Shown here in pieces: positions 2,559 to 57,617 of a stretch of 64,000 nt of DNA. The translations under genes and the position numbers were made by a program. The stretch lies in IMG/VR virus record IMGVR_UViG_3300021141_000706. One strand, given 5' to 3'. Source of the stretch: a virus. The notes under the pieces are model-generated. The model saw only the letters and a list, made by a program, of their open reading frames with translations, searched no databases and was not told the DNA's origin. How positions within the stretch are numbered: position 1 is the first letter of the stretch; every line of letters begins with the position of its first letter.

Positions 2559-3241
2559 TAAACATTTATATTAATATAGCAATGGTTGGTTCTGTTAATC
2601 AAGTTCTTTGGGATTTATTGACAAGAATTAAACAAAGTGGATTATATGACTCTGCTAATAAAATATATTTAGTTTTTAATGGTGATAGAAAACAACTATC
2701 ATTTAATTTAGTTAGTGAAAAATATGTTATAATAGACGCTAATCCAGATATATCAAAGTGTGAGTTTCCAACATTAGATTTGATAAGTCAACATTGTAAA
2801 GAAGAAGATTTTAATGTTTTATACTTACATACTAAAGGCGTTACCAAACCAGGCTATCAACAAATAATTGACTGGACTAATTTACTATCTTATTTTAATA
2901 TAAATAAATGGCAAGATAGATTAAAAGATTTAGAAGATAATGATTGTTCTGGTGTTAATTTCTTTGGAAATCCAGATGATATAAATCATCATCCATCAAC
3001 TTGGGGTTACGGCAAAGCTCCTTTACATTATAGTGGTAATTTTTGGTGGTCTAAGTCATCTCATATTAAAAACTTACCTAATATGTCAAATTGGTTACCA
3101 GATGGTAACTATTTGAGATGGAGAGTAATGGCTGAGATGTGGCTTTGTCAAATACCGGATGGTAAATACAGTTGTGCTTGGCAATCAAATATAAATCACT
3201 ACCAACAAAATTATCCTAAAGAATTATATGAATCAAATTAA
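2555..3241 (+). CDS. Putative glycosyltransferase-like protein
   Basis: YLHTKG and HYSGNFWW motifs; sugar-gene context. Confidence 0.5.
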   Translation: MINIYINIAMVGSVNQVLWDLLTRIKQSGLYDSANKIYLVFNGDRKQLSFNLVSEKYVIIDANPDISKCEFPTLDLISQHCKEEDFNVLYLHTKGVTKPGYQQIIDWTNLLSYFNINKWQDRLKDLEDNDCSGVNFFGNPDDINHHPSTWGYGKAPLHYSGNFWWSKSSHIKNLPNMSNWLPDGNYLRWRVMAEMWLCQIPDGKYSCAWQSNINHYQQNYPKELYESN

Positions 3242-3455
3242 AACAGGAGCCGGTGGTGAAATCTATTCAAATCCTGAGGCTGATAAATTAAGTAGTCATT
3301 ATGGTCTCGATGTAGCTGATCAATTATCTGCTATGTTATCTGATGAAATAGCCAAAAGTATAGATAAAGAGATTCTAAAAAGTTTAGGATTAGAACCAGA
3401 TAGAAATAAAAGAAGAAAAAACTCTATTAATAAAATATTTAAAGACGTTGAATAA
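3228..3455 (+). CDS. Mini-protein: gp23 major-capsid-like fragment plus C-terminal tag
   Basis: HYGLDVADQLSAMLSDEIAKSIDKEIL resembles gp23 HGMDADAELSGILATEIMLEINREVV (recalled); ends RKNSINKIF. Confidence 0.75.
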   Translation: MNQIKTGAGGEIYSNPEADKLSSHYGLDVADQLSAMLSDEIAKSIDKEILKSLGLEPDRNKRRKNSINKIFKDVE

Positions 3456-9334: not shown

Positions 9335-10590
9335 TATAAGTTTAATAATATTTTAAATGAATAATCATTAACATCAGTATCATCATCATACATTCTGTCA
9401 AATCTTGCCATATCAAAAACAACTTCTTCATAATCTAACTCTGGTAAAATACTTAACAAAGCTTCATCTATATCTGATTCTAATTTTTTAAGATTCATTT
9501 TACCTGTTAAATGTGAGTTATCATATCCACCTATGTTTATATTAATAGCTGGTTTATACATATCTAAAACTTTATCAACTGAATAATCTTTTTTCTTTTT
9601 AATATCATAACTGTGAATTGTAACGCTTCTTCTTTCATTGCCTGGAAATTCATCACCGTCTTTGAATCCATAATTATCAATATCAAAATTGACACAATTC
9701 CATTTTTTATCAGTTACATAATACTGTTCGTCACTTCTTCTTAACATTGTATTTGGGTAACTACCAATATTTAAAGTTGGTGAAATAATATCTATTAATA
9801 TATGTTTAACTATTCTTAACTTAGATTCTTCATTTACATTCATAACAGATATTAAACCATTGTATTTATTCTTATTTGGTTTATCATGATTTTCATAATT
9901 GCCATAAGCTATACATAAAACTGAATACTTATCTTTAGCAGATGGAATCTCATCATAAACATCATACATTCTATCATTTACGGTTTCAATATCAACCTTT
10001 GATAGTGAATTAAACATTTTATCAACTAAAGAAGTAATTTTTTGCCAATAACCTTCTCCAATAAAATGTTCTGTATTTAATCTAAGAGATGATTCACTTA
10101 CTTTATTGTTACTACGACCCCATTGAGAAGATTTTATATCTTCAAACCAATCATAGATACCATAATTCATTTGATTAGATTCTTGAATTTTATCAGCTGA
10201 AAAAATAGTTTCTAATTTAGGCATCTCATCATATATTTCAAACTTATCATATCCATATTTTTTATAGTCTTCTGGTATAAGTATTAAATAATTATCATTA
10301 GGATTTTTAGTAAATTGTTTAATAGCAAAATCTATAACTTTATCATGTATCATAGGAGCAATATGAGCTTCAATATTAGAATCAAAATAAACTACTTTAA
10401 CATTCAAGTCTTTTGATTTTGCCCATTTGTAAAACTCATTGGTAAACCAAGCACAATTGGCTTTATTTTTATCAAATGATTCTCCAAATCTAAGACTATA
10501 AACTTTAGACATATCAGTAATAAACTGATTAGCTATAGTTTCTAACTTAAACATCGATTCAAATATTTTATATTTAGTTAAATGTCTCAT
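9334..10590 (-). CDS. Putative head-internal protein with N-terminal Cys-His-Asp (papain/transglutaminase-like) domain
   Basis: MRHLTKYKIFES; NCAWF...HIAP...VIDFAIKQF; internal IQES and VSES. Confidence 0.55.
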   Translation of the reverse strand: MRHLTKYKIFESMFKLETIANQFITDMSKVYSLRFGESFDKNKANCAWFTNEFYKWAKSKDLNVKVVYFDSNIEAHIAPMIHDKVIDFAIKQFTKNPNDNYLILIPEDYKKYGYDKFEIYDEMPKLETIFSADKIQESNQMNYGIYDWFEDIKSSQWGRSNNKVSESSLRLNTEHFIGEGYWQKITSLVDKMFNSLSKVDIETVNDRMYDVYDEIPSAKDKYSVLCIAYGNYENHDKPNKNKYNGLISVMNVNEESKLRIVKHILIDIISPTLNIGSYPNTMLRRSDEQYYVTDKKWNCVNFDIDNYGFKDGDEFPGNERRSVTIHSYDIKKKKDYSVDKVLDMYKPAININIGGYDNSHLTGKMNLKKLESDIDEALLSILPELDYEEVVFDMARFDRMYDDDTDVNDYSFKILLNL

Positions 10591-19198: not shown

Positions 19199-19513
19199 AT
19201 GATTAAACACGAAATCAAAGTAGAGTTCTCTAACTCTGAAGCTCTTAAAACTATTATTCAAAAAGCCTACTTCGAACAAGGTCAGATGGGTAAGATTTTA
19301 GGAAAGAACCACTTTATCACAGTTGATGAAACAAAAGATGATGTGGCTTACACAATTTTCAAAGGACTAAACAGTGCTACAGCAAAGATAACAAATGAAG
19401 AAGTTATCGATGGTGCTATGAGATTTATGATTGATGAAACATCTGGTGAAATCAGACTTTATCCAATCTCTATCTACTGTATTCAAGAAGAAGAAAAATA
19501 CATCTTCTATTAA
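19199..19513 (+). CDS. Hypothetical protein
   Basis: 104-aa ORF. Confidence 0.6.
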   Translation: MIKHEIKVEFSNSEALKTIIQKAYFEQGQMGKILGKNHFITVDETKDDVAYTIFKGLNSATAKITNEEVIDGAMRFMIDETSGEIRLYPISIYCIQEEEKYIFY

Positions 19514-19532
19514 AAAATCAAACAAATTTATT

Positions 19533-20603
19533 ATGGTTCATCCAGATTTTAATGACATCCTGATCACTCCGGCTGTTGTATCAACTATTCGATCAAGAAG
19601 TGAAATTAAAGCTTATCAAATGAGTATAGGTGAAACTCCTTGGTTACCTTTATTTGTATCTCCAATGGATACTGTTATTGGTTTAGACAATTGGGAGTTA
19701 TATCTGAATAATAAAATGCCTATTTGTTTTCCAAGAGATATTAGACCAAATTCCTTTAATGAGGATGATAAAGGTTTACTATCAGCTTATAGTGATGTTA
19801 TTTTCTTTTCTTACTCTTTAGAAGAAGCATCAGCAATGTGTGAGTGGTTAAATAGTAATAAAGATAACGATTTAGAGTTTAATATTTTAATTGATATTGC
19901 TAATGGTCATATGAAACATATGGTTGATGTAGTTGAAAGATTAAGAGAAAGAACTAAAGTTAAAATCATGGTTGGTAATATTGCTAACCCTCAAACTTAT
20001 AAAGTTTTATCAGAAGCAGGTGCTGACTTTATTAGAGTTGGTATTGGATTTGGTGGTGGTTGTTTAACTGCTATGAATACTGGTGTGGGTTACTCAATGG
20101 CTCAGTTAGTTAAAGAATGTGCTGACTTAAAAGACCATATGGAATCTATGGGTGATAGAACTGCTAGTATTGTTGCTGATGGTGGATTCCGTGAGTATTC
20201 GGATATCATCAAAGCTCTGGCTTTAGGTGCTGATTATGTTATGTTAGGATCTATCTTAAACAAATGTCTTGAGTCTTCTGGTGATACTTATTGGAAAGGT
20301 ATAAAGGTTTCTCCTAATATTGCTAATTTTCTTTGGAAACGTAAATTCAAATTAGAAAAGAAGTTCAGAGGTATGAGTACTAAAGAAGTTCAAAAGAAAT
20401 GGGGTAAGTCAAAACTAACTACATCTGAAGGAGTTGTTCGTATGAGAACGGTTAAATACACTTTAGAAGGTTGGACTGAGAACTTTGTTGATTACTTAAA
20501 ATCTACGATGTCTTATACTAACAGTAGAACATTAAAAGATTTTATTGGAAATGTTAAGTGGACTGTGATTTCACAGAATGCTTATAATAGATTCAACAAG
20601 TAA
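19533..20603 (+). CDS. GMP reductase / IMP dehydrogenase family protein
   Basis: SPMDTV, IDIANGH, RVGIGFGGGCLT, IVADGG, GADYVMLG, FRGMST, SEG; start revised to 19533. Confidence 0.88.
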   Translation: MVHPDFNDILITPAVVSTIRSRSEIKAYQMSIGETPWLPLFVSPMDTVIGLDNWELYLNNKMPICFPRDIRPNSFNEDDKGLLSAYSDVIFFSYSLEEASAMCEWLNSNKDNDLEFNILIDIANGHMKHMVDVVERLRERTKVKIMVGNIANPQTYKVLSEAGADFIRVGIGFGGGCLTAMNTGVGYSMAQLVKECADLKDHMESMGDRTASIVADGGFREYSDIIKALALGADYVMLGSILNKCLESSGDTYWKGIKVSPNIANFLWKRKFKLEKKFRGMSTKEVQKKWGKSKLTTSEGVVRMRTVKYTLEGWTENFVDYLKSTMSYTNSRTLKDFIGNVKWTVISQNAYNRFNK

Positions 20604-26124: not shown

Positions 26125-28305
26125 TTAATCGGTTATTGTAACTAAGTGATCTTCTGTTTCACCTGATTGAAATTTACTACAAGGCGTTAAATATTTACCC
26201 CATAAGCCTCCACCTAATACTAATCTAAGACAAGTAACTCCCGGTATAACATTTAATGGTATTGTTATAGTTCCTGTTATATGTTTAGGTCCGGTCACAC
26301 CATCAACTTGTAAAACCTTTTCGTTATCATCAAATACACCATTTTGATTAAAGTCTATCCAACCACCAACTGAAGCTGTATAATACGGTGAAGGTGGTAT
26401 ATCACAATCATTATCATAAATATCAAATGAGTATGTATTGCCCTTTTTTAGTGTAGTGAATGAACCGTTTGGCTTAAAGTCTGAGTATTCATTTAAATAG
26501 GATTTATCACCTGGTGCTTGTTTATCACAAGTTAGACCAACCTTTACTCCATTTAACGTGAAGTCTATAATTTCTTCATCAGCCTGACCACCAGCACCAG
26601 ACTCACAATAACAATCAGTAAACTTATTTAAATCAATTAAAATTGACTCTGTTTCTTTTAATACATCACCACATTTAACCTTACAAATAAAAGTAGTAGG
26701 TTCAGATACAACTGGTTCATAAAAAAAATCAGTAGATCCACTTACCACTTGACCATTTTTAATCCATTGATAACTATCACCTGCTATAGATGGGTAAAGT
26801 AATAAACTACTGCCTTTACAAACTTTAGTATCGCTACTTATTATTTTAGGAGTATTATCACAATTAACATCACTAACTAAATTAATTGTGTAGTCCTCAG
26901 TTTCTCCAAAAGCATAAGATCCACATGATGAAATTGCGTTTTGCGTTTCGTTCACAATAACTCTAACTCCTGTTATACCTGGTTGTGATGTAACTGGAAT
27001 TTTAATAAAACCTTTTCTGACATTGGCAGTTGGACCATAAACAACAGGTGATAAATAAATTTGTTCACTATCCTCAAATATCCCATTTCTATTAATATCT
27101 ATAAAAATAGCGGCACGATTATAAGCACCGTTAGTACCACATAATGATGTTTCAACAATAAATGGAACACTAGAACCAATTTTAATATCTGTAGGTTTAT
27201 CATCTCTGTAATTTGAGTATAAAGATTTTTTTGATCCTTCACCGGGTGCTAAATCACCACAGTCTCCAGCTCTAACTCCAAATATAACACTAGTACCAAC
27301 ACTGGATTTTTTATCTAAATTACCTAATTTGAAATGTGTTATCTCTTCATCTGTTGGTGATTGAGCCGTACTTGGACAATAACAATTATAAAAAGGATTA
27401 ATTGGTATTTTTATAATATTTGTATAAGTAACAAGACTACCACAGCTAACCTTACATCTATAATATGTCTCGGTTGTTTGTGATGTAATTACTGATGAAC
27501 TATTACCAATAGAAACGGCATCATTGAAAGATAAACTATTTGATTTCTGCCAGTCATATGATATACCACCTTCGGCTATTTTATTAGTCAATGAAAGTGT
27601 GAATTGTTGGTTTGGACAAACAACATTATTCGTTGAAACAGCTAAACCTGTATTAGGTAATTTTGAACACATGTTAGGAGCTGTATATGTTATTCTAATT
27701 GTTGGTTTTAGAGAACCAGATGTTGGTAGTAGCAAAGCATCTTGTGGTATTAATACTGGACTTGTTACCTGAATAGCTTTACCAACAGAGGCTTTTTGAT
27801 AGAAAGTTAATGGTCCAACACATGTTCCCACTTTAGCCCAATCTGTTAGTATAGATAAGCTTCCTCCTTCATAGATAAAACCAGATGAGAATGGACAAGG
27901 TATCCAATAGTTTGTTGTAGCTGGGAATTCCATTTTATCAGTTGAGAAAACTGTTTGTGAGTTTTGTAAAAATTCTGAATAATTAGCAGACGTACCCATT
28001 GTTGTTTTAGATGTATTAGAAATAATAACATTGAATTTATTATTACCGGTAGCAGTCGCGTTATTTGCTTTTAGCCATTCCACTTTTGTAATGGTTGATC
28101 CAGATGGAATGTTTAATTCATCTTTAGTGTAAAGATAAGCAGACTTAGAATATTTTGCGGTCTGAGCAGTAACTCTTTGATAGATAGGACCTGTTTGATA
28201 GGATGAAGCACCAGAGATTGGCCCAATTGTTACACTTTGGGCAAGACAAGTGTTGATAGTTAGTATTGATAGTATCAATACCATAAGTTGTTTAATTTTT
28301 CTCAT
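26125..28305 (-). CDS. Secreted Bacteroidota-type protein with two GEVED domains
   Basis: Signal peptide (..CLAQ); CYC.S.A...DEEI, IDINRNGIFED/IDFNQNGVFD, GETEDY/GETEDH. Confidence 0.8.
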   Translation of the reverse strand: MRKIKQLMVLILSILTINTCLAQSVTIGPISGASSYQTGPIYQRVTAQTAKYSKSAYLYTKDELNIPSGSTITKVEWLKANNATATGNNKFNVIISNTSKTTMGTSANYSEFLQNSQTVFSTDKMEFPATTNYWIPCPFSSGFIYEGGSLSILTDWAKVGTCVGPLTFYQKASVGKAIQVTSPVLIPQDALLLPTSGSLKPTIRITYTAPNMCSKLPNTGLAVSTNNVVCPNQQFTLSLTNKIAEGGISYDWQKSNSLSFNDAVSIGNSSSVITSQTTETYYRCKVSCGSLVTYTNIIKIPINPFYNCYCPSTAQSPTDEEITHFKLGNLDKKSSVGTSVIFGVRAGDCGDLAPGEGSKKSLYSNYRDDKPTDIKIGSSVPFIVETSLCGTNGAYNRAAIFIDINRNGIFEDSEQIYLSPVVYGPTANVRKGFIKIPVTSQPGITGVRVIVNETQNAISSCGSYAFGETEDYTINLVSDVNCDNTPKIISSDTKVCKGSSLLLYPSIAGDSYQWIKNGQVVSGSTDFFYEPVVSEPTTFICKVKCGDVLKETESILIDLNKFTDCYCESGAGGQADEEIIDFTLNGVKVGLTCDKQAPGDKSYLNEYSDFKPNGSFTTLKKGNTYSFDIYDNDCDIPPSPYYTASVGGWIDFNQNGVFDDNEKVLQVDGVTGPKHITGTITIPLNVIPGVTCLRLVLGGGLWGKYLTPCSKFQSGETEDHLVTITD

Positions 28306-41345: not shown

Positions 41346-41348
41346 AAG

Positions 41349-41376
41349 AAAAGAGAGTCAAATGACTCTCTTTTTT
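41349..41376. terminator. Bidirectional intrinsic terminator
   Basis: AAAAGAGAGTCA-AA-TGACTCTCTTTT. Confidence 0.8.
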
Positions 41377-42254: not shown

Positions 42255-42755
42255 TTACTTTAATATTTCTTCTAATTTATTATCTCTTTCTTCGTACTTC
42301 TCTGTTATATCAGCATATCTTAATCTATATGATGTGCTTAGATTTACTAGATCTACATATTTTATAATTGAAAAGAGCACAAATGTTTTCCATCTTCTCT
42401 TTTCAAAAAAATCATTAACTAAATCTTCGGATTCAAATTCTTTTGTTTCAGCATTATATTGTTTTGAAACTATTTTATTATCAACTACTTTCATTATATG
42501 AAATGATGGCATCGAAGTAACATAAGAAATTTTAGTCCAATGTTTATCTAAAAATTGACCTAACCATAATGATGGATCAACTGTAGCCATTCTAACATTA
42601 CTATTATCACTACCCATTCTAAAGCAGTTATCAATTAGTATTTTAATACCTTCAAGATTATTCTCACCAATAGGATAAACTGATATACTTTTTGGATCCG
42701 TATTCGTTAGTTGAGTCGGTCCATTTAAATTTTTTATAAAGTCTTTGAATATCAT
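42255..42755 (-). CDS. Hypothetical protein with C-terminal tag
   Basis: Ends EERDNKLEEILK. Confidence 0.6.
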   Translation of the reverse strand: MIFKDFIKNLNGPTQLTNTDPKSISVYPIGENNLEGIKILIDNCFRMGSDNSNVRMATVDPSLWLGQFLDKHWTKISYVTSMPSFHIMKVVDNKIVSKQYNAETKEFESEDLVNDFFEKRRWKTFVLFSIIKYVDLVNLSTSYRLRYADITEKYEERDNKLEEILK

Positions 42756-42757
42756 AT

Positions 42758-43435
42758 TTATTTTATGTAATAATATAGTTTAAGTTTATCTCCCCAGGAG
42801 ACATCAACGACAAATTCTTCTTTTAATATCTTACAAGATTTATTTTCGTGTGATGTAATAAAGTGACAGCCTTTTGACAGCCTATTAAATATATCAGACC
42901 TCATATCATAATCAAAACAAACATCATTCATAAAAACAATAGAACCCATTGATAAATCAAAATCTTTTACATCTTTTTCAATGAAAAAAATTGATTTATG
43001 TTCTGGTAAAACTTCTTCTTTAATAGACTTAGCATATCTAAGTCTTTGTGGAACTATTTCAATACCAACAAATGTTTTTATATCAGACTTAATAGCAGTA
43101 TGTATAATTAATTTACCACAACCACAACCAATATCTACGAAAACATCTTTATCAGATACTTTTTTATATTTATTGATTTTATTTATGATTTCATCAACAC
43201 CATTTCTAAGAATCTCACCATATGTAAAATTATTATTATAATTTCCTTTATATGTGAAGTGTTTATTGATATTTGTATCTCTTTTAGTAAAATTTTCTAA
43301 TTTGAATTTGTCTTCAGATGAATAGTTATCCCAAACACCTAAAGACACACAAATAGATTTAATACTAAATAAGTTATGCTTATAAAGTTGATCTAATTTA
43401 GAATTGTCTAATAATAATTTAAGTTCCTTGTCCAT
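42758..43435 (-). CDS. Class I SAM-dependent methyltransferase, DOT1-like
   Basis: TYGEI, FVDIGCGCGK, GIEI, FMNDVCF, VSW. Confidence 0.75.
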   Translation of the reverse strand: MDKELKLLLDNSKLDQLYKHNLFSIKSICVSLGVWDNYSSEDKFKLENFTKRDTNINKHFTYKGNYNNNFTYGEILRNGVDEIINKINKYKKVSDKDVFVDIGCGCGKLIIHTAIKSDIKTFVGIEIVPQRLRYAKSIKEEVLPEHKSIFFIEKDVKDFDLSMGSIVFMNDVCFDYDMRSDIFNRLSKGCHFITSHENKSCKILKEEFVVDVSWGDKLKLYYYIK

Positions 43436-43841
43436 ATTTAACAATCTCAATTTTAGCCTCTCTTAAAAAATCTAAGCCAGAGGTGTCTTTATAGTCTTCA
43501 ATGTAGACTAATCGTTTTATTCCAGATTGTAGTATAAGTTTAGAACAATCTCTACAAGGAGAATGTGTTTGATATAAAGTACTACCCTCACAAGAATGAC
43601 CATGTTTAGCACACTTTAGAATAGCATTAGCTTCACCGTGAATAACATACCAATTAGTATCACCATCACCATTCTCACAAGAGTTATCAAAGCCTGTTGG
43701 TGTTCCATTATAACCATCAGATATAATCATTCCGTTCTTAACTATTAGGGCACCTACTTGTTTTCTACTACAATGTGAAAGTTTAGCCCACTCTGTAGCC
43801 ATATTCAAATAAGTTCTATCGTATCTTTCTTCCTTAGTCAT
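43419..43841 (-). CDS. dCMP deaminase
   Basis: SHCSRKQVGA, GYNGTP, HGEANAI, SPCRDC. Confidence 0.95.
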   Translation of the reverse strand: MTKEERYDRTYLNMATEWAKLSHCSRKQVGALIVKNGMIISDGYNGTPTGFDNSCENGDGDTNWYVIHGEANAILKCAKHGHSCEGSTLYQTHSPCRDCSKLILQSGIKRLVYIEDYKDTSGLDFLREAKIEIVKYGQGT

Positions 43842-43983
43842 TTTTAAATAGTTTATTTATTTTATATTTTCTAACCTCGTTTCTTTCCAGACCTAACATT
43901 TTAATTATCCAATCTATTGAAAAGTATGGAGTATTATATGATTTAATCATATCAGACATTATTTTCATTCTATCCTTATTCAT
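43834..43983 (-). CDS. Mini-protein (49 aa): portal (gp20)-like fragment plus tag; not in ORF track
   Basis: MNKDRMKIMSDMIKSYNTPYFSIDWIIKMLGLERNEVRKYKINKLFKND; 8-nt overlaps at both ends. Confidence 0.6.
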   Translation of the reverse strand: MNKDRMKIMSDMIKSYNTPYFSIDWIIKMLGLERNEVRKYKINKLFKND

Positions 43984-44128
43984 TGAATAATTTATTAATT
44001 TTTTTCTTTCTTATAAGTTTTCTAACACTATCTTTATATACCTTATTAAAGGCTTCTTTTGGATATATTCTACCATTGTGTTTATCATAGGCTTTTTGTA
44101 TAACACCTTCTAGAATATACTTACTCAT
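43976..44128 (-). CDS. Mini-protein (50 aa): prohead protease (gp21)-like fragment plus tag
   Basis: MSKYILEGVIQKAYDKHNGRIYPKEAFNKVYKDSVRKLIRKKKINKLFNE; start revised to 44128. Confidence 0.72.
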   Translation of the reverse strand: MSKYILEGVIQKAYDKHNGRIYPKEAFNKVYKDSVRKLIRKKKINKLFNE

Positions 44129-44294
44129 CTGGAAATAACTTTTTAATTTTTTCTTTTCTACTACCTCTTTTAAAATCATTTATAACATCAGCAACAGCAG
44201 GTGAAACAACCATATAATTAGCACTACCTTTAGTAGATGCTTTATGAATCATTTCAGATGCCTTTAATAATTTATTAATTAGTTCTTTACTCAT
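44121..44294 (-). CDS. Mini-protein (57 aa): major capsid (gp23)-like fragment plus tag; not in ORF track
   Basis: MSKELINKLLKASEMIHKASTKGSANYMVVSPAVADVINDFKRGSRKEKIKKLFPDE. Confidence 0.75.
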   Translation of the reverse strand: MSKELINKLLKASEMIHKASTKGSANYMVVSPAVADVINDFKRGSRKEKIKKLFPDE

Positions 44295-45072
44295 GTGTTA
44301 TTCTTATATTAGTTTTCACACTCCAATCTTTTGGTAAATGTTTACACTCATTATGTTCTAAGAAGTGTGATCTCCACATCTCTATAAAACTTTGTATATT
44401 ATCTATCTTAGACATAACAACTTCACCGTGGGTCTTTTTAATAACCATTGTTTTTATTTTAGATATCTTCTCTAATCTTCTACAATCTAACCTTTTAATA
44501 CCAAAGTAATCTTTAATCTTCTTTTTCATCAGATTAATTTTATCTTTAGGTATAGTAATATCTGGATTAAGTAAAGCAATTGATATCTTCACATAAGTTA
44601 TTAACTCTTTACTATCACTACATAATTCACCGTTCAAAGGTATTTGATACTCTTCGCCAATTTTGTTTTTTAACTCATCTGCTTTTCTTTCATAAGAATC
44701 ATGACAATCAGCACATAATGAAAGAACATCGTGGAAGTTATGAGATTTTAATTCCATCGGAAAGTATCTACGATAACAGTAAGGCACAACGTGGTGTCTA
44801 GTAAGATATTCTTCATTACCACAAGTAACACAGCGATTACCCATTTCAGATAAACCGAATGATTTATTATGATTACCTAAACCTCTTGGTTCAAATTTCA
44901 ATTTAACTATTAATGGTGATTCTGATACAATCTCACCTAAATTTCTATTAAGATACCACTTGGCTTTTTTCTCGTCACATCTAAACATCAAAATCCCACC
45001 CGGAGATAGGACTTGACAGTTTCCATAAATTTTTCGGTCTTTCTCTACACCATATGATGTAACTCTACCCAT
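44287..45072 (-). CDS. HNH-like nuclease resembling the EXD2 C-terminal domain
   Basis: YGNCQVLSP, KAKWYL, CVTCG..LTRHHVVPYCYR..KSHNFHDVLSLCADCH. Confidence 0.75.
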   Translation of the reverse strand: MGRVTSYGVEKDRKIYGNCQVLSPGGILMFRCDEKKAKWYLNRNLGEIVSESPLIVKLKFEPRGLGNHNKSFGLSEMGNRCVTCGNEEYLTRHHVVPYCYRRYFPMELKSHNFHDVLSLCADCHDSYERKADELKNKIGEEYQIPLNGELCSDSKELITYVKISIALLNPDITIPKDKINLMKKKIKDYFGIKRLDCRRLEKISKIKTMVIKKTHGEVVMSKIDNIQSFIEMWRSHFLEHNECKHLPKDWSVKTNIRITHE

Positions 45073-45075
45073 TTA

Positions 45076-45633
45076 TTAAGCGATATGTTTGTCGATTTGT
45101 TGAATGTTTAATTCTACCAAAGTTTTTCTACCAAAGATTAAAACAGCAATCTTAACCTTATCACCATCAATGTTTTCAACATCACCAGTGAATGAATTAA
45201 AAGGACCATCTAAGATTTTAACTTCTTCGCCTATGATGAATCTGTTTGTAGATTCCTGTTCAACAGCTACTTGTTCTTGTACACCAATCATTCTTTCTAC
45301 TTCTTTAAGAGAAAGTACTTGAGGTTTTTTAGCTCTATCTGAAAGTAAACCAGTGGCACCATCACAACCTTTAACAAAGTGTGCTAATTCTCCAATTGAT
45401 ATTGTTTCAACAAAAATATAACCAGGGTACATAACTTTTTCTCTGGTAACTTTCTTACCGTCTTTTAAGTGGAAGCTTTTTTCAGTAGGTACTAAAACTC
45501 TACTAATAGCACCCATCAAGTCACCTTTTTCAGATTCTTTTCTTAACTTTTCGGCTACAGAACGCTCACGATTAGATTGTGCTCTAACGATGTACCACTT
45601 CATTGTTGTTTCTTTTTCCATTGTTGTATTCAT
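45076..45633 (-). CDS. nusG: Transcription termination/antitermination factor NusG
   Basis: KWYIV..SNRE, YPGYIFVE, KOW GEEVKILDGPF, IFGRKTLVEL. Confidence 0.93.
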   Translation of the reverse strand: MNTTMEKETTMKWYIVRAQSNRERSVAEKLRKESEKGDLMGAISRVLVPTEKSFHLKDGKKVTREKVMYPGYIFVETISIGELAHFVKGCDGATGLLSDRAKKPQVLSLKEVERMIGVQEQVAVEQESTNRFIIGEEVKILDGPFNSFTGDVENIDGDKVKIAVLIFGRKTLVELNIQQIDKHIA

Positions 45634-47067: not shown

Positions 47068-47490
47068 CTATTTAAGAATCTCTTTTATTTTTCTATCTCT
47101 TTCTAAAATTTTGAATTTAATTTCTAAATATTCTTCTATCTCTGAAGGTAAGTTAAGGTTATTCTTTTTTAACTCATCGTAAAAAGGTTTACCTAAAACA
47201 TTTAATGTTGAAATAGCAACAGCAAGATGTGGATCACCATAACCATCAACTTCAATATCTTCATCTAAAACATGATAAGTTGTTTTATTAATTGAGTAGT
47301 TCATAGTGCTACCGCCCCAAGTAAGATATTGACCAGATGATAATGTAGATGTTGTGATTGAAGAATTTGTACCAGATATGTTGATAACTCCAGAATTACC
47401 TACTGAGCTTGATATAGAAGGTGTTCCAAATACTGGAGCACCTATTGCGCTTGTGTGAACTGTTTGTCCGGCTATGTTTACGAATCCCAT
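47068..47490 (-). CDS. Hypothetical protein with S/T/G-rich N-terminus and C-terminal tag
   Basis: Ends LERDRKIKEILK. Confidence 0.6.
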   Translation of the reverse strand: MGFVNIAGQTVHTSAIGAPVFGTPSISSSVGNSGVINISGTNSSITTSTLSSGQYLTWGGSTMNYSINKTTYHVLDEDIEVDGYGDPHLAVAISTLNVLGKPFYDELKKNNLNLPSEIEEYLEIKFKILERDRKIKEILK

Positions 47491-55406: not shown

Positions 55407-57617
55407 ATGAGAAAATTGCTAACTATGTTATTTTCTGTGATTAGTTTATTTGCTATTTCACAGAACTGTCCTGAATTAGGACCAAATCAGATTTTACCTT
55501 GTGGTGTAAATACTGCTATATTGACTGCTAACCTAACCGCTTGTGGTGCTGGTACAAATCCAAATCAAACAACTAACTATTCTGTTGCTTCTATTCCTTA
55601 TGTTGCTCAAACAAATACGGGAACTCAGTTATTTATGACTGATGATTCACAACAAGGACCTTTTAATATAGGTTTTAACTTTTGTTTCTTTGGTACAACA
55701 TACACTCAATTTTATATAGGTTCAAATGGTTGGATATCTTTCTCACCCGCACAACCAACAACATTTAGTTCTCAACTAATACCAACTATCAATCCTTTAG
55801 TTCCAAAGAACTGTATTATGGGTCCTTGGCAAGATTGGCATCCAGGTTTAGGAGGTCAAATTAGATATCAAACGTCTGGTGTTGCTCCTTGTAGAAAACT
55901 AACAGTTAGTTGGATTGGGGTTCCAATGTTCTCTTGTACAGGTAATCAAGGAACATTTCATATAGTTATTTATGAATCTAGTAATAATATTGAAAATCAT
56001 ATTCAAAATAAACCGGCTTGTTTAGGTTGGCAAGGTGGTACTGCTGTTGAAGGTATACATAACTTAGCGGGTACAATAGGAATTCCAGTACCTGGTAGAA
56101 ATTCAACTGCTTGGGTTGCTAATAATGATGCTTGGAAATGGACACCTAGTGGACCAGTAGTTACACCTGTATTAACTTGGTATCAAGTTGGTAATCCAGT
56201 TGCTATTGGAACAGGTCCTACTATAACTGTAAATCCATTAGTACCAACACAATATACTTGTCATTTTGTTTACCCTATTTGTAATGCGGGTTGGACTTCT
56301 TGTAATGCTGGTATTGCTGGACCTGGACCAGATACTGTTTTAGTTGTGCCAGGTCCACCTAACATTCTTCTTAATACTTCATTTACCGAACCACTTTGTT
56401 TTAATGATTGTAATGGGACAGCAACTGTTACTCCAATAACAGGAACACCACTATATAATTATTTATGGTCAAATGGTCAAACAACTCAAACTGCTACTAG
56501 TTTATGTGCTGGTGTTTATAGTGTAAATGTAACTGATATAAACGGATGTTCAGCAAATACCACTGTTAATATAACTCAACCAACACAATTGATTTTTGAT
56601 AGTTTAGTTTTATCTGATGTTACTTGCTCATTAAATGATGGACAAATTTTTATTTATCCAAATGGTGGAACACCAACATATGATTATTTTATAGATGGTT
56701 TAATATCAAATGACACAATTACTAATCTCGCTGGTGGTAACTATACAGTTTCTGTAACAGATAATAATGGTTGTACTATAGACTCAATCGTTTTTATTGA
56801 TTTTCCTACACCTATAAATATTTCAGTATCACCAGTTGATACAATTCTTTGTGTTCCAGGTACATTCAATTTTATAAATAACTCTACACCTGCTGTTAAT
56901 ATTGTTAGTTCAATAATAGATTATGGTGATGGATTTACTGATAATATATTATCAAATTCTAACTTTACACATACTTATAGTACAGTTGGTATTTGGGATG
57001 TTATAGTAACAACGGTTAATGATTATGGATGTACATACACACAAACATTTAACAATATAGTAGAAACCGTTTCATTGCCAGTTTCTCAGTTTATGGTTGG
57101 ACCAAACCCAACAACAATGTTTGAGACAACTGTTTCTACATTTGATTATTCAGGTCCTAATATTGTGGCTTGGAATTGGTCAGCACCAGGATCTTTAGAA
57201 CTAACTAGTGGTCTTTCTAATCCAAATTTCACATACCCTGAAGGAATTATAGGTCAGTATTTAATTACTCTAACAGTTCAAAATAGCTTAGGTTGTAGTG
57301 ATTCATCTTCTGTTGTTTTAATTGTTAATCCAGATGTATTAACTTATATACCTAATGCTTTCACTCCGGGTGGTGATGAATTCAATTCAACTTGGAAATT
57401 CTACTTATCAGGTGTTGATGAGCAAGATTTCACTATGTCTATATTCAATAGATGGGGTCAAATGATATGGGAATGTCATGATATAAATGGTGAGTGGGAT
57501 GGATCTTATAATGGGTATTATGTTCCAGATGGTTGTTATTTTTGGAAATCTCAGTTTACGGTTTTAAACTCTTCAGAGAAAAGAACTGTTATGGGTTATG
57601 TAACTATTATCAGATAA
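55407..57617 (+). CDS. Secreted protein with SprB-like repeats, PKD domains and T9SS type-B (gliding-motility) C-terminal domain
   Basis: Signal peptide; YLWSNG..VTD.NGC repeats; YIPNAFTPGGD, IFNRWG, WDG, GYVTIIR. Confidence 0.88.
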   Translation: MRKLLTMLFSVISLFAISQNCPELGPNQILPCGVNTAILTANLTACGAGTNPNQTTNYSVASIPYVAQTNTGTQLFMTDDSQQGPFNIGFNFCFFGTTYTQFYIGSNGWISFSPAQPTTFSSQLIPTINPLVPKNCIMGPWQDWHPGLGGQIRYQTSGVAPCRKLTVSWIGVPMFSCTGNQGTFHIVIYESSNNIENHIQNKPACLGWQGGTAVEGIHNLAGTIGIPVPGRNSTAWVANNDAWKWTPSGPVVTPVLTWYQVGNPVAIGTGPTITVNPLVPTQYTCHFVYPICNAGWTSCNAGIAGPGPDTVLVVPGPPNILLNTSFTEPLCFNDCNGTATVTPITGTPLYNYLWSNGQTTQTATSLCAGVYSVNVTDINGCSANTTVNITQPTQLIFDSLVLSDVTCSLNDGQIFIYPNGGTPTYDYFIDGLISNDTITNLAGGNYTVSVTDNNGCTIDSIVFIDFPTPINISVSPVDTILCVPGTFNFINNSTPAVNIVSSIIDYGDGFTDNILSNSNFTHTYSTVGIWDVIVTTVNDYGCTYTQTFNNIVETVSLPVSQFMVGPNPTTMFETTVSTFDYSGPNIVAWNWSAPGSLELTSGLSNPNFTYPEGIIGQYLITLTVQNSLGCSDSSSVVLIVNPDVLTYIPNAFTPGGDEFNSTWKFYLSGVDEQDFTMSIFNRWGQMIWECHDINGEWDGSYNGYYVPDGCYFWKSQFTVLNSSEKRTVMGYVTIIR

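Follow-up and report, generated by a model that had tools for sequence, protein, structure and literature searches.

Sequence comparisons identify three consecutive mini-genes, found in a 64,000-nucleotide stretch of viral DNA (IMG/VR virus record IMGVR_UViG_3300021141_000706; the window below), as genuine, selected and independently movable genes of a giant T4-like lake phage. Each codes for a 30–40-residue excerpt of a head protein followed by a C-terminal tag that is common to the three. The excerpted elements are the helix and strand of the capsid A-domain, the N-terminus of the prohead protease and, probably, a C-terminal helix of the portal protein. The reading that we favour, with a probability of about 0.4, is that the excerpt would act as a bait mimicking its parent protein while the tag would provide a common handle. 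The mini-genes and their tags are the following:

44121–44294, minus strand: ORF1, 57 amino acids; excerpt of a T4-type major capsid protein (helix and strand), then the tag
44133–44159, minus strand: tag of ORF1, RKEKIKKLF
43976–44128, minus strand: ORF2, 50 amino acids; excerpt of the N-terminal part of a prohead protease, then the tag
43985–44011, minus strand: tag of ORF2, RKKKINKLF; a natural variant without ORF2 has its breakpoint at the first codon of this tag
43834–43983, minus strand: ORF3, 49 amino acids; probable excerpt of the portal C-terminal helix (PYFxIxWI), then the tag
43846–43872, minus strand: tag of ORF3, RKYKINKLF

The proteins end in RKEKIKKLF-PDE (ORF1), RKKKINKLF-NE (ORF2) and RKYKINKLF-KND (ORF3). 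An 8-nucleotide overlap of the form ATGAnTAA is found at all four junctions of the segment, which are those between an upstream HNH endonuclease gene and ORF1, ORF1 and ORF2, ORF2 and ORF3, and ORF3 and a downstream dCMP deaminase gene. The initial annotation, made from the DNA letters without database searches, had described three minus-strand ORFs with 8-nucleotide overlaps and these tails, and its coordinates, lengths and protein ends were all reproduced. The head genes of the window phage were represented in our comparisons by those of the complete relatives LR745206.1 (W01, 635 kb) and LR756502.1 (W02) and of the IMG/VR genomes G004–G007. Note that the W01 sequence was assembled from 33 stretches and that its set of 1,063 genes is crude.

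ORF1 aligns with positions 222–259 of the Pfam Gp23 model (PF07068) with an E-value of 2.5e-4 and 21 bits, which is below the cut-off of 24.4 bits, and it also matches PHROG major-head families. Two orthologues from IMG/VR relatives score above this cut-off (32 bits, E 1.1e-7; 26.3 bits, E 6.4e-6) and several database members of the ORF1 family carry a precomputed PF07068 match. A hidden Markov model (HMM) of the family, stripped of the tag and run against all ORFs of W01, ranked the capsid protein first (residues 411–450, E 2.6e-4). The best four matches of a 49-sequence ORF1 profile in the PDB are all to T4 gp23, residues 352–389, with an E-value of only 0.2, and this is the very segment that the initial annotation had named. 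Searches of phage records by tblastn with ORF1 gave mostly chance matches. Judged from these alignments, ORF1 is an excerpt of the capsid protein and not a capsid protein: the complete HK97-type fold (~376 model positions) is absent from its 57 amino acids, which correspond to Gp23 positions 222–263 only. AlphaFold models ORF1 as a helix (residues 3–21), a loop and a second helix (residues 32–53) that includes the tag (pLDDT 71, pTM 0.31).

The parent of ORF2 was recognized by profile comparison. The 42-member ORF2 family aligned by hhalign to a prohead protease profile (megaphage relatives, Sinorhizobium phiM19 and Xanthomonas BUDD) with a P-value of 1.8e-7 and a probability of 94%, ORF2 residues 3–49 lying on protease residues 24–71 (47 columns). 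Likeness to the protease is confined to about residues 24–50, the columns beyond being the linker and tag of ORF2 itself. All nine tblastn matches of ORF2 in 50,697 phage records fall in genes annotated as prohead protease or core, with 54–58% identity over 24–28 residues. No direct Pfam match was found (PF03420, Peptidase_S77), nor anything relevant in a profile search against PDB sequences. The catalytic His motif of the protease (GEFDHP/GELNHP, at about residues 68–74) lies beyond the excerpt and ORF2 has no Ser region. Because the excerpt ends before the His motif, ORF2 cannot be a protease, as had been proposed from its length. ORF2 proteins of the clade score 53–70 against the proteases of phiM19, BUDD and T4 and 28–35 against the W01 megaphage protease, whereas the capsid excerpts are at least as close to the resident lineage. 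If the proteases of relatives are a fair proxy for the window phage's own, the higher scores of ORF2 against distant T4-like proteases hint at a foreign or consensus target.

For ORF3 four weak matches agree on one C-terminal segment of the portal (PYFxIxWI), made of the last 35–40 residues before the acidic tail of that protein. ORF3 matches portal family phrog_213 (E 0.089, positions 452–490 of 528), an orthologue matches Pfam Portal_T4 (PF07230; E 0.025, positions 384–419 of 433), the best full-length match of the family in W01 is the 577-amino acid portal (residues 478–497, E 0.012), and hhalign of ORF3 against the portal gave a P-value of 2.4e-4. A tblastn search of phage records gave no match to ORF3 and a profile search against PDB sequences nothing relevant. 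These concordant alignments make ORF3 a probable excerpt of the portal C-terminus, the weakest assignment of the three; with 49 amino acids it cannot be the portal itself. The likenesses of ORF1 to gp23, of ORF2 to gp21 and of ORF3 to gp20 had been put forward in the initial annotation, the last as the least certain, and all three are now backed by computed comparisons of correspondingly graded strength.

As defined by motif searches, the tail of the three proteins is the basic “RK” flavour (RKxKIxK[LI]F) of a lineage-wide helical C-terminal tag, R-x-x-K-I-x-x-[IL]-[FL]. The six-frame translation of W01 has 14 occurrences of a strict form of the motif (R[KRS]..[IV][KNE][KNR][IL][FL]), all of them 1–7 residues before a stop codon and in reading frames of at most 87 codons. 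The reversed motif occurs twice, and the tail is therefore not a product of chance. With a relaxed form (R..[KRS][IV]..[IL][FLI]) the number of occurrences rises to 148, of which 104 are no more than 10 residues away from a stop codon. The tag is carried by 61 of the 1,063 W01 genes (5.7%). It has the basic flavour in 15 of these (median length 52 amino acids), a form restricted to proteins of 35–83 amino acids, and an acidic “R[DEN]” flavour in 43 (median 105 amino acids). The conserved tag positions vary synonymously (AGA/AGG/CGT, ATA/ATT/ATC and TTT/TTC), from which it follows that it is the peptide that is constrained, rather than a signal in the DNA. Of the ORFs in the window about 12, or one in seven, end in the tag. 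They include eight ORFs of 90–283 amino acids and no known function with the acidic flavour (ends at 10587, 23542, 40964, 42255, 47068, 61293, 62698 and 63797). The larger tagged proteins have no match to Pfam or annotated PHROG families. The shared tail is thus a real and selected peptide, as the initial annotation had supposed. It is not private to the trio: most proteins that carry it have no likeness to head proteins.

Three kinds of signal do not match the tail. A degron of the ssrA type, which is read at its free-carboxylate end, is at odds with the one to eight variable residues that follow the tag (PDE, NE, KND, GG, KTKKHDN and others); disposal by some other route is conceivable. A role at the DNA level, as junction or translation-initiation signal, is excluded by the synonymous variation and by the convergent end of a fourth mini-gene (see below). 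The tag also differs from the T4 capsid targeting sequence (CTS), since it is C-terminal (1–10 residues before the stop codon) and has no conserved cleavage motif.

The trio has sister genes in the window and in related genomes. The one found in the window is the following:

3228–3455, plus strand: fourth tagged mini-gene, 75 amino acids; excerpt of the capsid spine helix, then RRKNSINKIF

Its product matches Gp23 model positions 162–194 (Pfam E 2.4e-4; phrog_138 E 1.9e-4) and it has orthologues in W01, W02, G002 and G005. It ends at a convergent gene junction, and its tag therefore cannot serve a downstream start codon. Six related genomes each hold one full capsid gene and two to five capsid-excerpt mini-ORFs, some of which score above the Pfam cut-off. 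These excerpts cover four regions of the Gp23 model (about 102–180, 159–198, 197–263 and 302–356). The mini-genes are 30–39% identical to the resident capsid protein and so are not recent duplicates. Excerpts were also found from other head proteins. A tagged piece of the protease C-terminal motif is present in relatives, and an 83-amino acid tagged mini-protein of W01 (LR745206.1, 460435–460686) carries three copies of the 14-residue head scaffold repeat YSEYLAENLDKNI. Head scaffold and prohead protease are fused in these phages into a single protein of 707–713 amino acids, which this mini-protein matches with an E-value of 2e-17 (LR745206.1, 198546–200669). A 79-amino acid tagged mini-protein (LR745206.1, 83154–83393) is an apparent patchwork of a ribonucleotide-reductase motif (TIKPSGSVS versus TIAPTGSVS) and of motif A of DNA polymerase B (DFASLYPST); both matches are weak (E 0.004 and 0.011 within one genome). 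A FEN/RNase H motif is likewise weakly matched among the mini-genes of relatives. About half of the W01 proteins with the “RK” flavour have no recognizable parent, and ten such tagged mini-proteins found nothing in Pfam or PHROGs.

The idea that the excerpts always come from the most conserved segments is true for two of the four regions only (97th and 88th percentile, against 28th and 19th), the percentiles referring to W01–T4 capsid identity on an alignment with 16% identity. The trio is not a decayed duplicate of a head module, as its capsid–protease–portal order reverses the T4 order 20–21–23, its members are independent cassettes and sister pieces are dispersed.

In a spine-helix mini-protein of W01 (LR745206.1, 440158–440361), the pre-tag segment and tag, GLGIEPDRYKRRKNSINKIFKQ, resemble the N-terminal stretch GIGINEDPYAARGNSMYDFFSQ of the portal (193127–194860). 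The likeness (45% over 22 residues; E 0.24) is not significant genome-wide and gives no more than a hint, from sequence, that the tag may copy a portal motif.

Conservation of the mini-genes was investigated at the locus and in databases. Stand-alone small-protein families, clustered at 90% identity, contain 52 clusters for ORF1, 41 for ORF2 and 28 for ORF3, none of them named. One of the contigs on which ORF1 was found is 215 kb long. In 12 relatives anchored by NusG, the slot between the NusG and dCMP deaminase genes carries zero to three mini-genes, always in the order ORF1, ORF2, ORF3, with or without the HNH gene. The ORFs are intact across lineages whose NusG is only 60% identical. The dN/dS ratio of the mini-genes is mostly 0.15–0.6, with one pair of about 1 that involves an orthologue with a degenerate tail, while it is 0.02–0.26 for neighbouring genes; their dN is 3–17 times that of these neighbours. 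By these measures the mini-genes are fast-evolving but constrained. Among 49 ORF1 relatives only three columns, R46, K47 and I50 in the tag, are invariant, and the capsid-like core is nearly invariant at A12, S13, I16, N26, Y27, M28, V29 and S31. The conservation with dN/dS below 1 that the initial annotation had proposed to look for in relatives is thus found, while the private three-part cassette that it had described resolves into independent modules of a dispersed family.

Contigs from RNA (metatranscriptomic) libraries of three studies cover the mini-genes, which attests their presence in RNA libraries and is not proof of transcription; uncovered parts of the stretch carry no information. 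Two of these libraries hold a natural variant (contigs X15 and X16) in which the ORF1 body (...GFKRGS) is joined to the first codon of the ORF2 tag, at 44011. The ORF2 cassette is missing and the breakpoint lies at the tag. Tag-coding repeats may act as recombination points for gain and loss of cassettes.

The genes around the trio, with two tagged genes of the same region, are the following:

45076–45633, minus strand: NusG-like gene; conserved left flank of the variable slot
44287–45072, minus strand: HNH endonuclease gene upstream of ORF1, 261 amino acids (PHROGs E 1.9e-4; Pfam HNH weak)
43419–43841, minus strand: dCMP deaminase gene; conserved right flank of the variable slot
42758–43450, minus strand: DOT1-like methyltransferase gene (Pfam DOT1 E 4e-13), directly 3′ of the dCMP deaminase gene and kept in relatives
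42255–42755, minus strand: 166-amino acid protein of unassigned function ending in the acidic tag ERDNKLEEILK
47068–47490, minus strand: 140-amino acid protein of unassigned function ending in the acidic tag ERDRKIKEILK

Upstream beyond the HNH gene come NusG, a protein of unassigned function and a 5′–3′ exonuclease/RNase H, and downstream of the mini-genes the dCMP deaminase is followed by the DOT1-like methyltransferase. The run from 48381 to 41399 has no notable intergenic gap and no terminator inside, the first terminator-like site being at 41347–41376; the grouping of the trio with RNase H, NusG and dCMP deaminase that had been noted at the outset therefore stands. T4-like replication genes (topoisomerase II subunits, a gp32-type single-stranded DNA-binding protein and an RnlA-like ligase) are found in the wider window, whose G+C content is ~29%. 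A promoter scan was uninformative (50 sites versus 44.6 expected). Since the mini-genes lie within a gap-free run of replication and nucleotide-metabolism genes, their products are probably made before those of the head genes. The HNH gene is present in relatives L002, L003, L006 and L012 and absent from L001, L004, L005 and L007–L010. It looks like a free-standing homing endonuclease that is an optional neighbour with no part in mini-gene function.

According to the bait-and-handle reading, an excerpt freed from its parent fold would compete for whatever binds the same segment of the parent, whether an adjoining subunit, a partner in folding or assembly, or a host sensor that reads motifs. 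Through the tag, every tagged protein would be linked to a single reader serving to sort, dock or dispose of it, and the target may be host immunity or a co-infecting T4-like phage. That protein fragments can be dominant-negative inhibitors of their parent is established experimentally (PMC9245647). The homology of the excerpts, their constraint and modularity, the dispersed sister genes and the placement outside a late gene run all speak for this reading. Several points weigh on the other side. Excerpt and tag have no known binding partner; most of the excerpted elements are buried in the core of the HK97 fold and are not obvious surfaces; the helical hairpin modelled for ORF1 is of moderate confidence only; and the missing parents of about half of the “RK”-tagged mini-proteins of W01 count here too. 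DNA carry-over is possible in the RNA-library contigs, and translation is only predicted. Most tagged proteins, being of the acidic class, have no fragment character, so that the role of the tag need not involve mimicry. A wider form of the proposal is more doubtful: giant T4-like phages might carry a natural library of baits with handles (excerpts of capsid, portal, protease, scaffold and possibly replication proteins), each joined by a lineage-specific address helix to a common reader, as a modular kit that would neutralize motif-reading sensors or poison the assembly of co-infecting relatives.

The main rivals of mimicry are interference with co-infecting T4-like phages, a pure address label and neutral debris. 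An address label is the one that survives best, and we still consider it unlikely. The tag would then do no more than sort small accessory proteins, sending them for example into the prohead for injection, as happens to the T4 internal proteins, or to a protease that would remove them at a set time, and the excerpts would be convenient foldable bodies. Its occurrence on ~6% of W01 genes and ~12 window ORFs, most of them without likeness to a fragment, agrees with this, as does the fact that the tag is the most conserved part of ORF1. However, the excerpt cores are conserved too, in ORF1 at the eight nearly invariant residues given above, and the same parent segments recur as separate families in at least six genomes. 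Random bodies would not repeatedly be pieces of capsid, portal, protease and scaffold, and packaging into the head fits poorly with a run of replication genes.

The initial annotation had favoured immune decoys: the excerpts would capture sensors (CapRel/Lit, Avs4, CBASS) early in infection and the tail would hand them to a common partner. We regard this as distinctly unlikely in that form. The excerpts do come from protein classes that trigger defences (PMC9712102; preprint 10.64898/2026.01.04.697583), their gene run is not a late one, and the mini-genes have the usual traits of counter-defence loci: an accessory status, fast evolution and variable presence. But Avs sensors wrap whole folds over extended interfaces (preprint 10.64898/2026.01.04.697583), which makes pieces of 30–40 residues unlikely decoys for sensors of the Avs4 type and leaves a fit for motif readers (Lit, CapRel) only. 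The putative replication-enzyme excerpts, moreover, are weakly supported.

It is highly improbable that the mini-genes are debris without function, that is, scraps of head genes captured beside a recombination-prone tag repeat or through homing-endonuclease traffic and translated without a role. An HNH gene does adjoin them in the window as well as in four relatives, cassettes come and go and one breakpoint falls exactly at a tag, and one pair has a dN/dS of about 1 and one orthologue a degenerate tail. Against this stands their conservation: ORFs kept intact between divergent lineages, 28–52 clusters per family, a dN/dS that is mostly far below 1, and residues conserved in the excerpt as well as in the tag. 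The identity of 30–39% to the resident capsid is not that of recent scraps, and mini-genes are found with no HNH gene, both in L007, L009 and L010 and at other loci. The narrower notion of HNH exon or flank debris was rejected on the last two grounds, with L001 as a further case without HNH and with mini-genes at unrelated loci.

PIP boxes have the form Q-x-x-[ILM]-x-x-[FY]-[FY], and T4 gp33 and gp55 are tethered to the gp45 sliding clamp. That K-x-K-I-x-K-[LI]-F would similarly tether tagged proteins to a clamp of the phage is scarcely credible in spite of the 4-7-8 hydrophobic spacing (I, [LI], F), the basic residues on either side, a position close to the C-terminus and a neighbourhood of T4-like replication genes, as the tag has no Gln and no aromatic pair, its acidic flavour (R-D-x-K-I-D-x-I-L) is unlike known clamp motifs, PF09116 found no gp45-type clamp in W01 or W02, and ~60 clamp clients per genome would be unprecedented.

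Known systems offer partial parallels to the bait-and-handle reading. The T4 CTS, carried by the internal proteins IPI–III and Alt, is likewise a short portable peptide that gives unrelated small phage proteins one destination. It is N-terminal, has ~10 residues, is cut by gp21 at L/I-x-E and is found on late packaged proteins. The tag described here is C-terminal, helical and without cleavage motif, and its genes lie in non-late runs. Dominant-negative fragments (PMC9245647; PMC10769210) and eukaryotic microProteins likewise consist of a short piece of a larger protein that, made on its own, can compete for the native contacts of its parent. The mini-gene products are, by their sequence likeness, excerpts of this kind. 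The former are laboratory constructs or eukaryotic regulators, whereas the mini-genes form natural, selected multi-member phage families with a common tag. The Gol region of T4 gp23, which triggers Lit, and the capsid motif of CapRel (PMC9712102) are also short capsid stretches active outside the assembled shell. Those stretches switch host defence on, while the excerpts were recognized as the four Gp23 model regions listed above. In SPbeta-like phages DSAD1 blocks a sensor of a virion protein (PMC11087589); unlike the tagged mini-proteins, it is a full-size phage protein without a shared tag. Full-text searches of the literature turned up no account, for phages, of tagged fragment mini-proteins or of the tag, in agreement with the initial annotation, which knew of no such system.

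Should the excerpts prove to be mimics, they would be the first example in nature of short fragments of conserved virion proteins that a virus uses as inhibitors or decoys, organized by a portable peptide tag. It would then become easier to find the linear motifs in core phage proteins that host defences or assembly partners read, and to understand how the many small “dark” proteins of giant phages are sorted or timed in their action. Even if there is no mimicry, a tag on ~6% of the proteins of a genome implies an undiscovered reader. The mini-gene families are abundant in lake metagenomes.

Other genes of the window deserve mention. An IMP dehydrogenase/GMP reductase-like gene is found at 19431–20603 (plus strand). 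A 726-amino acid protein (26125–28305, minus strand) has an Ig-like domain and a C-terminal GEVED domain. A 736-amino acid protein (55407–57617, plus strand) combines SprB repeats, PKD domains and a CHU_C type IX secretion signal domain, a composition that suggests a Bacteroidota host and export of this phage protein through the host type IX secretion system.

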